Origin: a virus
Taxonomy: Duplodnaviria; Heunggongvirae; Uroviricota; Caudoviricetes
Length of the DNA: 23,488 nucleotides
Virus record (IMG/VR): IMGVR_UViG_2671180903_000008
Span: 1-23,488 of that record
Strand: one strand, 5' to 3'
Shown here: in pieces, positions 19,111-19,340 of the stretch
Position numbering within the stretch: position 1 is the first letter of the stretch
Layout: each line of letters opens with the position of its first letter
Program-made: the position numbers and the translations under genes
Notes under the pieces: model-generated
Told to the model about the DNA's origin: nothing
What the model saw: the letters and a program-made list of their open reading frames with translations, nothing else
The model's database searches: none

Positions 19111-19340
19111 GTTAAGCATCCACAGGCTGGTATCTGCAACCGATTATAACGGATGCTTAACGTAATGCGTGAAGTATGGACATATTTTATCAATTAGTGT
19201 TTTTTGCCGTTTCATAATGTTTCAGATTGTTCATTATGTTTTTGATTATAAACAGATTTGTGATTTTCCTTGTTCCAGCTTGTTTCACGTTGTAGCCCTT
19301 TGTGCAACGATCGGTGTAGTTAATGGTGTAGTTAATTGTG

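Follow-up and report, generated by a model that had tools for sequence, protein, structure and literature searches.

What do the short repeats between roxA (ycfD) and a neighbouring integrase gene represent: the boundary of an integrated island, binding sites of its integrase, or a promoter? All three readings had been offered by a first-pass annotation of the DNA analysed here (the window, 23,488 nucleotides), which is E. coli-like chromosome. A re-reading of the sequence finds all three repeats at the positions first reported, within the 248-bp divergent roxA-int intergenic region. The inverted repeat pairs GTTAAGCATCC (19111-19121) with GGATGCTTAAC (19151-19161), 100% complementary across a 29-nt spacer; the tandem repeat consists of two exact copies of GGTGTAGTTAAT (19313-19324 and 19325-19336); and cataatgttt (19213-19222) and cattatgttt (19232-19241) form part of an 18-nt direct repeat (19211-19228 and 19230-19247, 83% identical). 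Their relation to the flanking genes needs correction. The inverted repeat does not straddle the roxA start, as had been proposed, but lies entirely upstream of it, roxA beginning at ATG 19110 (MEYQLTL..., as in all homologues) and not at the ATG of a longer ORF at 19119. The tandem repeat does abut the GTG at 19338 that opens the longest int ORF, but it ends 22 bp before the annotated int ATG at 19359 (409 aa).

Coordinates of the features discussed (window numbering).
Feature	Position	Strand	Remarks
Lambdoid prophage tail genes	up to ~13.3 kb of window		
potB + potA	14481-16464	minus	
pepT	16672-17940	plus	
roxA (ycfD)	17989-19110	minus	annotation of matching genomes; PF08007 + PF20514; chromosomal flank of attL
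11-bp inverted repeat	19111-19161	minus	phoQ-roxA intergenic chromosome, outside island
TATAAT	19143-19148	minus	in repeat loop, 32 nt upstream of roxA ATG; putative -10 box
attL core GGACATATTT	19178-19187	plus	chromosome/island junction
Overlap (strand-exchange) candidate GGACATA	19178-19184	plus	7-7-7 layout, from reconstructed attP and clone D i14
C' core-type half-site TTTTATC	19185-19191	plus	putative Int site; from reconstructed attP
P' arm, core to int start	19188-19358	plus	island DNA; presumably holds int promoter
catwatgttt pair	19211-19247	plus	7-bp palindromes CATAATG (19213-19219) and CATTATG (19232-19238)
Block shared with P arm, TTGTTCCA..TTGTTTCA..GTGCAACGATC	19270-19312	plus	directly upstream of arm sites
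Arm-type sites P'1 + P'2, GGTGTAGTTAAT x2	19313-19336	plus	putative Int-binding; exact tandem
int	19359-20588	plus	tyrosine integrase, 409 aa
alpA	20953-21141	plus	PF05930, E 5e-17; AlpA-family HTH regulator

Only the 12-bp tandem repeat, among the three, exceeds chance: it is the single exact instance of its kind in the window and is seen in 0.7% of simulations. Perfect 11-bp inverted repeats with a loop of at most 50 nt occur twice in the window against 0.25 expected, and at least one such repeat is present in 17% of Markov-simulated windows; by itself, the 11-bp inverted repeat is statistically unremarkable. The other perfect 11-bp inverted repeat (17949-17973, GGATGCGGCAT), with a loop of 3 nt, separates the stop codons of the convergent genes pepT and roxA and is probably a bidirectional terminator. 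Further to the left, terminase, portal, tail and tape-measure genes at 1-14400 represent the right end of a lambdoid prophage that adjoins potB at the place expected for potC; for an ORF at 13426-14118 the matches are limited to PHROGs without an assigned function, and in related genomes the same slot is filled by effector-carrying prophages with nleL, espN, espK and espW.

The position of the island boundary emerges from genomes with and without the island. When a 601-bp query spanning the region was compared with the 5,426 complete E. coli genomes, each of them gave a match. In roughly 4,800 island-free genomes the match covers query positions 1-288 only (up to window position 19187), with phoQ next, while in 600 of the 5,426 it crosses the junction. 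The left island boundary in the window lies at 19187/19188. In the empty site, roxA to phoQ measures 75 bp and the sequence reads ...GTGAAGTATGG(G/A)CATATTTATTCATC..., TTA being the complement of the phoQ stop codon; in island carriers, attL reads ...GTATGGACATATTTTATCAATTAG... and attR ...GATAAAAGGACATATTTATTCATC..., and the block GGACATATTT is common to attB, attL and attR. Judged from these alignments, the true junction is this 10-bp core, which the first-pass annotation had missed; it falls between the two repeat features, neither of which is the boundary. The last two bases of GGACATATTT belong to the phoQ stop codon, and because the core supplies them phoQ is left intact. GGACATATTT is also the published att core of EcCICFT073 and EcCIRM12579, at ycfD-phoQ (Table S1, Fillol-Salom et al. 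2018, PMC6092414), and O-island 51 / CP-933C / Sp7 has been placed between ycfD and phoQ (Flockhart et al.). A cloned int-attP segment of EcCICFT073 integrates unaided (PMC6092414).

The reconstructed attP reads GATAAAA-GGACATA-TTTTATC, where TTTTATC is the perfect inverted partner of GATAAAA, so that putative inverted core-type sites flank a 7-bp overlap; empty attB sites with GGACATATTT exist (loci L008-L010). The exchange region is most likely GGACATA, because the phage-inducible chromosomal island (PICI) of clone D i14, described below, shares the 7-7-7 layout and differs in its 7-bp middle. A laboratory strain and NCTC86 carry GGGCATATTT, and other empty sites, including that of O55:H7 DEC5D, carry GGACATATTT; GGGCATATTT amounts to a mismatch within the proposed overlap, yet EcCICFT073 integrates into laboratory strains. 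At the polymorphic base, natural islands have A/A, G/G (NCTC86) or G/A (MEI4BO-21) at attL/attR. Since all three combinations occur, the polymorphism was dropped as a locator of the crossover, and the cleavage positions are not fixed by it.

With the junction in place, it is highly probable that window positions 19178-19358 are the attL of a PICI of the EcCICFT073 / CP-933C (OI-51) family inserted directly after the phoQ stop codon, and that the tandem 12-bp repeats are arm-type sites for its integrase (Int). The gene order, with int at the left end followed by alpA and both reading rightward, is that of EcCICFT073-family PICIs. Int contains an Arm-DNA-bind_3 domain (PF13356, residues 8-95, E 5e-18) and a tyrosine-recombinase catalytic domain (PF00589, residues 214-375); among solved structures, the nearest is a CP4-like integrase N-domain (PDB 3JTZ, E 8.5e-4). 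Its identity is 97% with the Int of EcCICFT073 and 99.5% with that of O157 CP-933C (Z866). Scanning genome contigs with Int brought up a single close relative, from Shigella flexneri, and a distant match of no relevance; diversity was sampled instead among E. coli genomes, in P4 and through accessions given in the literature. EcCICFT073, the prototype Gram-negative PICI, shown to be induced and packaged by a helper phage (PMC6092414), occupies the same ycfD/roxA-phoQ site with the same core. It shares the int-alpA order of the window with O157 CP-933C / OI-51 / Sp7 (PMC3378721), and the P' arm of both is identical to that of the window, tandem repeats included; they differ after alpA, where the 388-aa ORF of the window is not found. 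AlpA is the master activator of EcCICFT073 (PMC6092414), and the alpA product is possibly an excision factor.

The window covers the first 4.3 kb of the island, which may be of the classical or of the capsid-forming class. PICIs of this family are expected to measure about 10-15 kb and to have a pri/rep module but neither tail nor lysis genes. Close relatives are 11.2-11.7 kb long and carry a primase or RepA gene, an SSB gene and capsid-related genes, and other islands with the same Int are capsid-forming PICIs (cf-PICIs) of ~15 kb. The CFT073 integrase (WP_000085269.1) and the same attL are found in cf-PICIs elsewhere, including O157:H7 (L015, L016 14230-28100; L024), and these encode HK97 capsid, protease, portal, HNH, TerS and TerL. 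Because both kinds of island carry the same integrase and attL, one int-att module serves classical PICIs and cf-PICIs at roxA-phoQ. For the window's own island variant, no complete match was found in the E. coli collection; the best island match, in E. coli ESDR8, is 97.6% identical over 95%, but is rearranged, with its right end at tqsA. The ESDR8 island (L024 / L025) begins at roxA and ends by a truncated tqsA, another PICI att site, which suggests a chromosomal rearrangement between two PICIs. The 388-aa ORF (21199-22365, plus strand) directly follows alpA and has no Pfam or PADLOC match; only its last ~90 residues match phrog_6196, annotated as a transcriptional repressor. The ORF lies in a segment (~21340-22323) missing from the O157 and CFT073 islands and could be an accessory gene, or a fusion gene, that occupies the island's variable slot.

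Evidence on the tandem repeats comes from the other end of the island as well. The window stops short of that end, and attR was therefore read in close relatives (DNA 90-98%, Int 97-99.5% identical). All five complete relatives examined (O157 Z866, Z1323HEC0423, CFT073, NCTC86 and MEI4BO-21), which are independent islands, have a second pair, GGTGTAGTTAAT GGTGTAGTCAAT, in the same orientation, 74 bp inside attR; the window's pair lies 125 bp inside the island, counted from the core. The direct repeats are thus present at the far end, which lends support to the arm-type reading that the first-pass annotation had included among its possibilities. In the 40.6-kb O157 locus, exact or one-mismatch copies of GGTGTAGTTAAT number 2 + 2 and occur at the two island ends only, a total reached in 0 of 100 shuffles. 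A 50-bp block that takes in the repeat occurs in 1,160 genomes, at a median of two places in each, and BLAST aligns window positions 19302-19337 with the attR arm over 36 bp at 97% identity; the likeness of the two arms further includes shared TTGTTCCA and TTGTTTCA motifs outside this match. The arm repeats flank the core on both sides and are unrelated to it in sequence. Empty sites contain no copy, and the repeats are for that reason internal to the island and not the crossover site. A two-mismatch inverted copy of the arm unit (GGTGTAATTAAG, 19644-19655, minus strand) occurs 286 bp into int; it is within chance expectation and in coding sequence, and was not counted as an arm site. P4 has an annotated arm repeat inside its int at a similar distance.

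Parallel layouts are found in other elements. In the satellite phage P4 (NC_001609, whose annotation follows Pierson and Kahn 1987), tandem pairs of the 12-bp 'attP arm sequence repeats' bracket the core: the pair next to int is 15 bp before it, with the core 112 bp further and the distal pair 53 bp beyond the core, as compared with 22 bp to the int ATG, 125 bp and (in relatives) 74 bp for the island studied here. P4 Int, like that of the window, has an arm-type DNA-binding N-domain, although the two proteins are only 23% identical. The 12-bp unit of P4 is TTGGGGGCATAA as against GGTGTAGTTAAT; its core is 20 bp long and located at the 3' end of a tRNA-Leu gene, in contrast to the 10-bp core here, placed at a protein gene's stop codon; and P4 has extra inverted and intragenic arm copies. 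In the proL (yejM) PICI of ATCC 25922, whose Int is 25% identical, two copies of the 12-bp unit TTTAGTTATACG form pairs 130 bp inside attL (int-proximal) and 61 bp inside attR (distal), and the core defined by empty-site comparison is the last 17 bp of tRNA-Pro.

The PICI of clone D i14 is a closer relative and has a different target, an ISEc45 transposase gene. It carries the same arm repeats, GGTGTAGTTAAT, at both its attL and attR ends, and its Int is 87% identical overall, 90% in the arm domain and 77% over residues 101-200. The centre of its attP, TATAAAT-ATCGTGA-TTTTATA, has the same 7-7-7 arrangement and similar core-type arms around another 7-bp middle. This pattern fits a heterobivalent integrase, because the arm sites track the N-domain, whereas the target tracks the overlap and the core-binding domain. 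Lambda attP (P1, P2, P'1-3, C/C', IHF) follows the same logic, with arm sites that differ from core sites, and the island studied here resembles it further in the putative 7-bp overlap between inverted core-type sites and perhaps in a candidate IHF site between arm and core. It departs from lambda in having PF13356 rather than the lambda arm domain, in arm sites arranged as two tandem pairs of one orientation, and in an int that adjoins the P' arm and presumably has its own promoter.

The remainder of the P' arm is conserved from core to ATG in five aligned islands, one of them with an Int that is 87% identical. The block at 19270-19312 that is shared with the P arm possibly contains accessory-factor sites or a third, degenerate arm site. 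The two 7-bp palindromes of the catwatgttt pair are spaced 19 bp apart; both copies are retained in clone D i14, and the second varies elsewhere (CACTATG in the mobile EcCICFT073, CATTATA in O157 Z866), so that constraint on the pair appears weak. The pair is a candidate binding site of a recombination directionality factor (RDF) or of IHF, or may belong to a promoter. On the minus strand, it is overlapped by a sequence that departs from the IHF consensus at one position; in a consensus scan, matches in the P' arm were of the one-mismatch kind only, and the P arm contains an exact match to WATCAANNNNTTR (AATCAATGGCTTG), 32 bp left of the core. A sigma-70 consensus scan of the plus strand from the core to int gave no match, and loosening the criteria brought up no more than weak candidates for an int promoter, among them TTCAGA-17-GATTAT (19221/19244), none of which is put forward as the promoter. 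The idea that the P' arm is curved or has phased T-tracts was considered and dropped: TT dinucleotides show no significant period around 10-10.5 bp, their best period being 9 bp, with a maximum matched in 7% of shuffles.

The inverted repeat belongs to the chromosome. It lies inside the part of the window matched by all 5,426 E. coli genomes, and is unchanged in every empty roxA-phoQ site examined (L001, L008, L009 and L010). On the minus strand, which is the roxA-sense strand, RNA of the repeat folds at -19.7 kcal/mol (z -2.8), and the last base of the hairpin's 3' arm directly precedes the roxA ATG. The stem is followed by AUGGAAUACC and not by a U tract, and a terminator scan found none here; given also the 29-nt loop, a rho-independent terminator was rejected. 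Among the syntenic phoQ-roxA spacers of Salmonella, Kosakonia, Cedecea, Cronobacter and Yokenella, the sole conserved block is CATCCGTTATAAT, shared by E. coli, Cedecea, Cronobacter, Yokenella and in part Kosakonia. The block includes the -10-like TATAAT of the loop, which probably serves as -10 box for roxA. In none of the five genera are the hairpin's 3' arm and its pairing present, and a conserved RNA structure was rejected after this comparison. On these grounds, the inverted repeat is best described as a feature peculiar to E. coli that surrounds what is probably the roxA promoter. In strain GPEC60-33-648 (L011 1711-1740), an IS4-like ISVsa5 is inserted inside the roxA-proximal arm of the repeat, directly upstream of roxA, with GTTAAGCA on both sides.

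The stable fold, the position of the 3' arm against the roxA start and the conserved TATAAT in the loop, as a result of which roxA's own transcript would be without the 5' arm, together raise another explanation: that the repeat is a functional hairpin of the phoPQ read-through transcript, the only RNA in which it could form. There it would protect a 3' end or mask the roxA RBS, in the latter case leaving roxA to be translated only from the transcript of its own promoter. We consider this explanation, in either variant, rather doubtful, as the lack of a U tract speaks against an intrinsic terminator, arm and pairing are missing from the five other genera, and E. coli itself offers no variation in which covariation could be sought.

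A different role has to be weighed for the tandem repeat, that of an operator or promoter element of int only, acting through another regulator, for instance AlpA or a host factor, and without part in recombination. Its location 22 bp upstream of the int ATG would suit such an element, and AlpA-family control of int is reported for a P4-like element, as cited in PMC6092414. However, a near-identical pair occupies the far end of the island, where no gene starts; the Pint fusion of EcCICFT073 is active and is not regulated by AlpA, which leaves its activity unchanged (PMC6092414); and the two-sided layout of P4 is annotated as attP arm repeats. A purely regulatory role is therefore very unlikely.

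If the tandem pairs are arm-type sites, as we prefer, regulation of int may accompany recombination. Reasoning by analogy with lambda and P4, the N-domains of Int monomers would contact the two tandem pairs, and their C-terminal domains the C and C' sites; the arms would fold back onto the core to form an intasome, a picture that the IHF consensus of the P arm would fit; and strand exchange would proceed within the 7-bp overlap, with attB at the phoQ end. Since the P' pair is so close to the int ATG, Int bound there would probably lower int transcription and thereby repress its own promoter. Autorepression of int has two precedents, one demonstrated (IntS of KplE1) and one reported (Int of P4) (Panis et al. 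2010, PMC2951348). In the KplE1 (CPS-53) IntS/TorI system (PMC2951348), as in the window, int reads away from attL and has arm sites just upstream, and from this likeness negative autoregulation by the window's Int is predicted. For KplE1, the transcription start, the overlap of the -10 box with P'1 and the repression have all been measured, whereas in the window, known from sequence, no clear -10/-35 was found. What the sequences show directly is where the junction lies, that the repeats occur at both island ends, which domains Int contains and that other elements have parallel layouts; the attachment of Int to the repeats, the precise points of cleavage, the autoregulation and any function of the inverted repeat are inferred from them.

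The first-pass annotation had also suggested that the inverted repeat could be an att site or the island boundary, and its distance from the core, just 16 bp, might be taken to indicate part of the integrase's chromosomal target (attB). The repeat lies on the chromosomal side, however, and is present and identical in island-free genomes, so that it is not an att site or a boundary; the ISEc45 secondary site used by the related integrase is not bordered by any comparable repeat, and chance alone should produce such an 11-bp inverted repeat in ~17% of windows. The attB of lambda-type integrases is, moreover, short and centred on the overlap. A part for the inverted repeat in attB or in marking the boundary is most improbable.

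Least credible of all is that the tandem repeat is itself the recombination core, where strands are exchanged: a direct repeat is present at both island ends, and the founding PICI catalogue gives CGGTGTAGTTAATGGTGTAGTTAATT as the 'att site core' of EcCIDI14, but empty sites have no copy, homology to the chromosome ends 125 bp (attL) and 74 bp (attR) away, the clone D i14 target in ISEc45 breaks far from the repeats, and the core of the proL PICI likewise lies apart from them.

This catalogue entry bears on more than one island. Table S1 of Fillol-Salom et al. (2018, PMC6092414) lists under 'att site core' TTTGTAGTTATACG... for yejM-type PICIs, besides the EcCIDI14 entry. The listed sequences, at L007 1252-1275 / 12507-12531 and L012 2549-2572 / 13165-13188, are the tandem arm repeats; empty-site comparison places the real cores 60-130 bp away, at the 17-bp 3' end of tRNA-Pro and, in ISEc45, at ...CGCTGTGA / GTTGATG... 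(the slash marks the break). On balance, we favour the view that the catalogue 'att site cores' of at least nine Gram-negative PICIs are arm sites, and that a conserved arm module combined with varied overlaps retargets these satellites; the islands concerned would be the yejM-type PICIs of E. coli and Shigella and EcCIDI14, with NmCIFF6 probably among them.

The island family, its site, its core and the function of the int-att cassette are already published, and the EcCICFT073 paper (PMC6092414) does not describe the arm repeats as such. The one new point is interpretive, namely that sequences catalogued as cores appear to be arm repeats, and the current understanding of site-specific recombination is unchanged by these results. 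Arm-type sites beside a P4-like int are textbook knowledge, and PICI-based delivery vectors already employ this int-att module; giving a function to the int-adjacent repeats is useful for annotating and engineering such cassettes. At this locus, the exact left boundary of the island is now known, with phoQ intact and roxA retaining its probable promoter. More generally, arm repeats are easily taken for cores, and the att sites of PICI catalogues need to be checked against empty sites. For the family, a single arm-binding module (the same 12-bp repeats and an N-domain 90% identical) would be common to classical and capsid-forming PICIs, and its combination with different 7-bp overlaps and a diverged core-binding domain would send otherwise similar satellites to new chromosomal sites.
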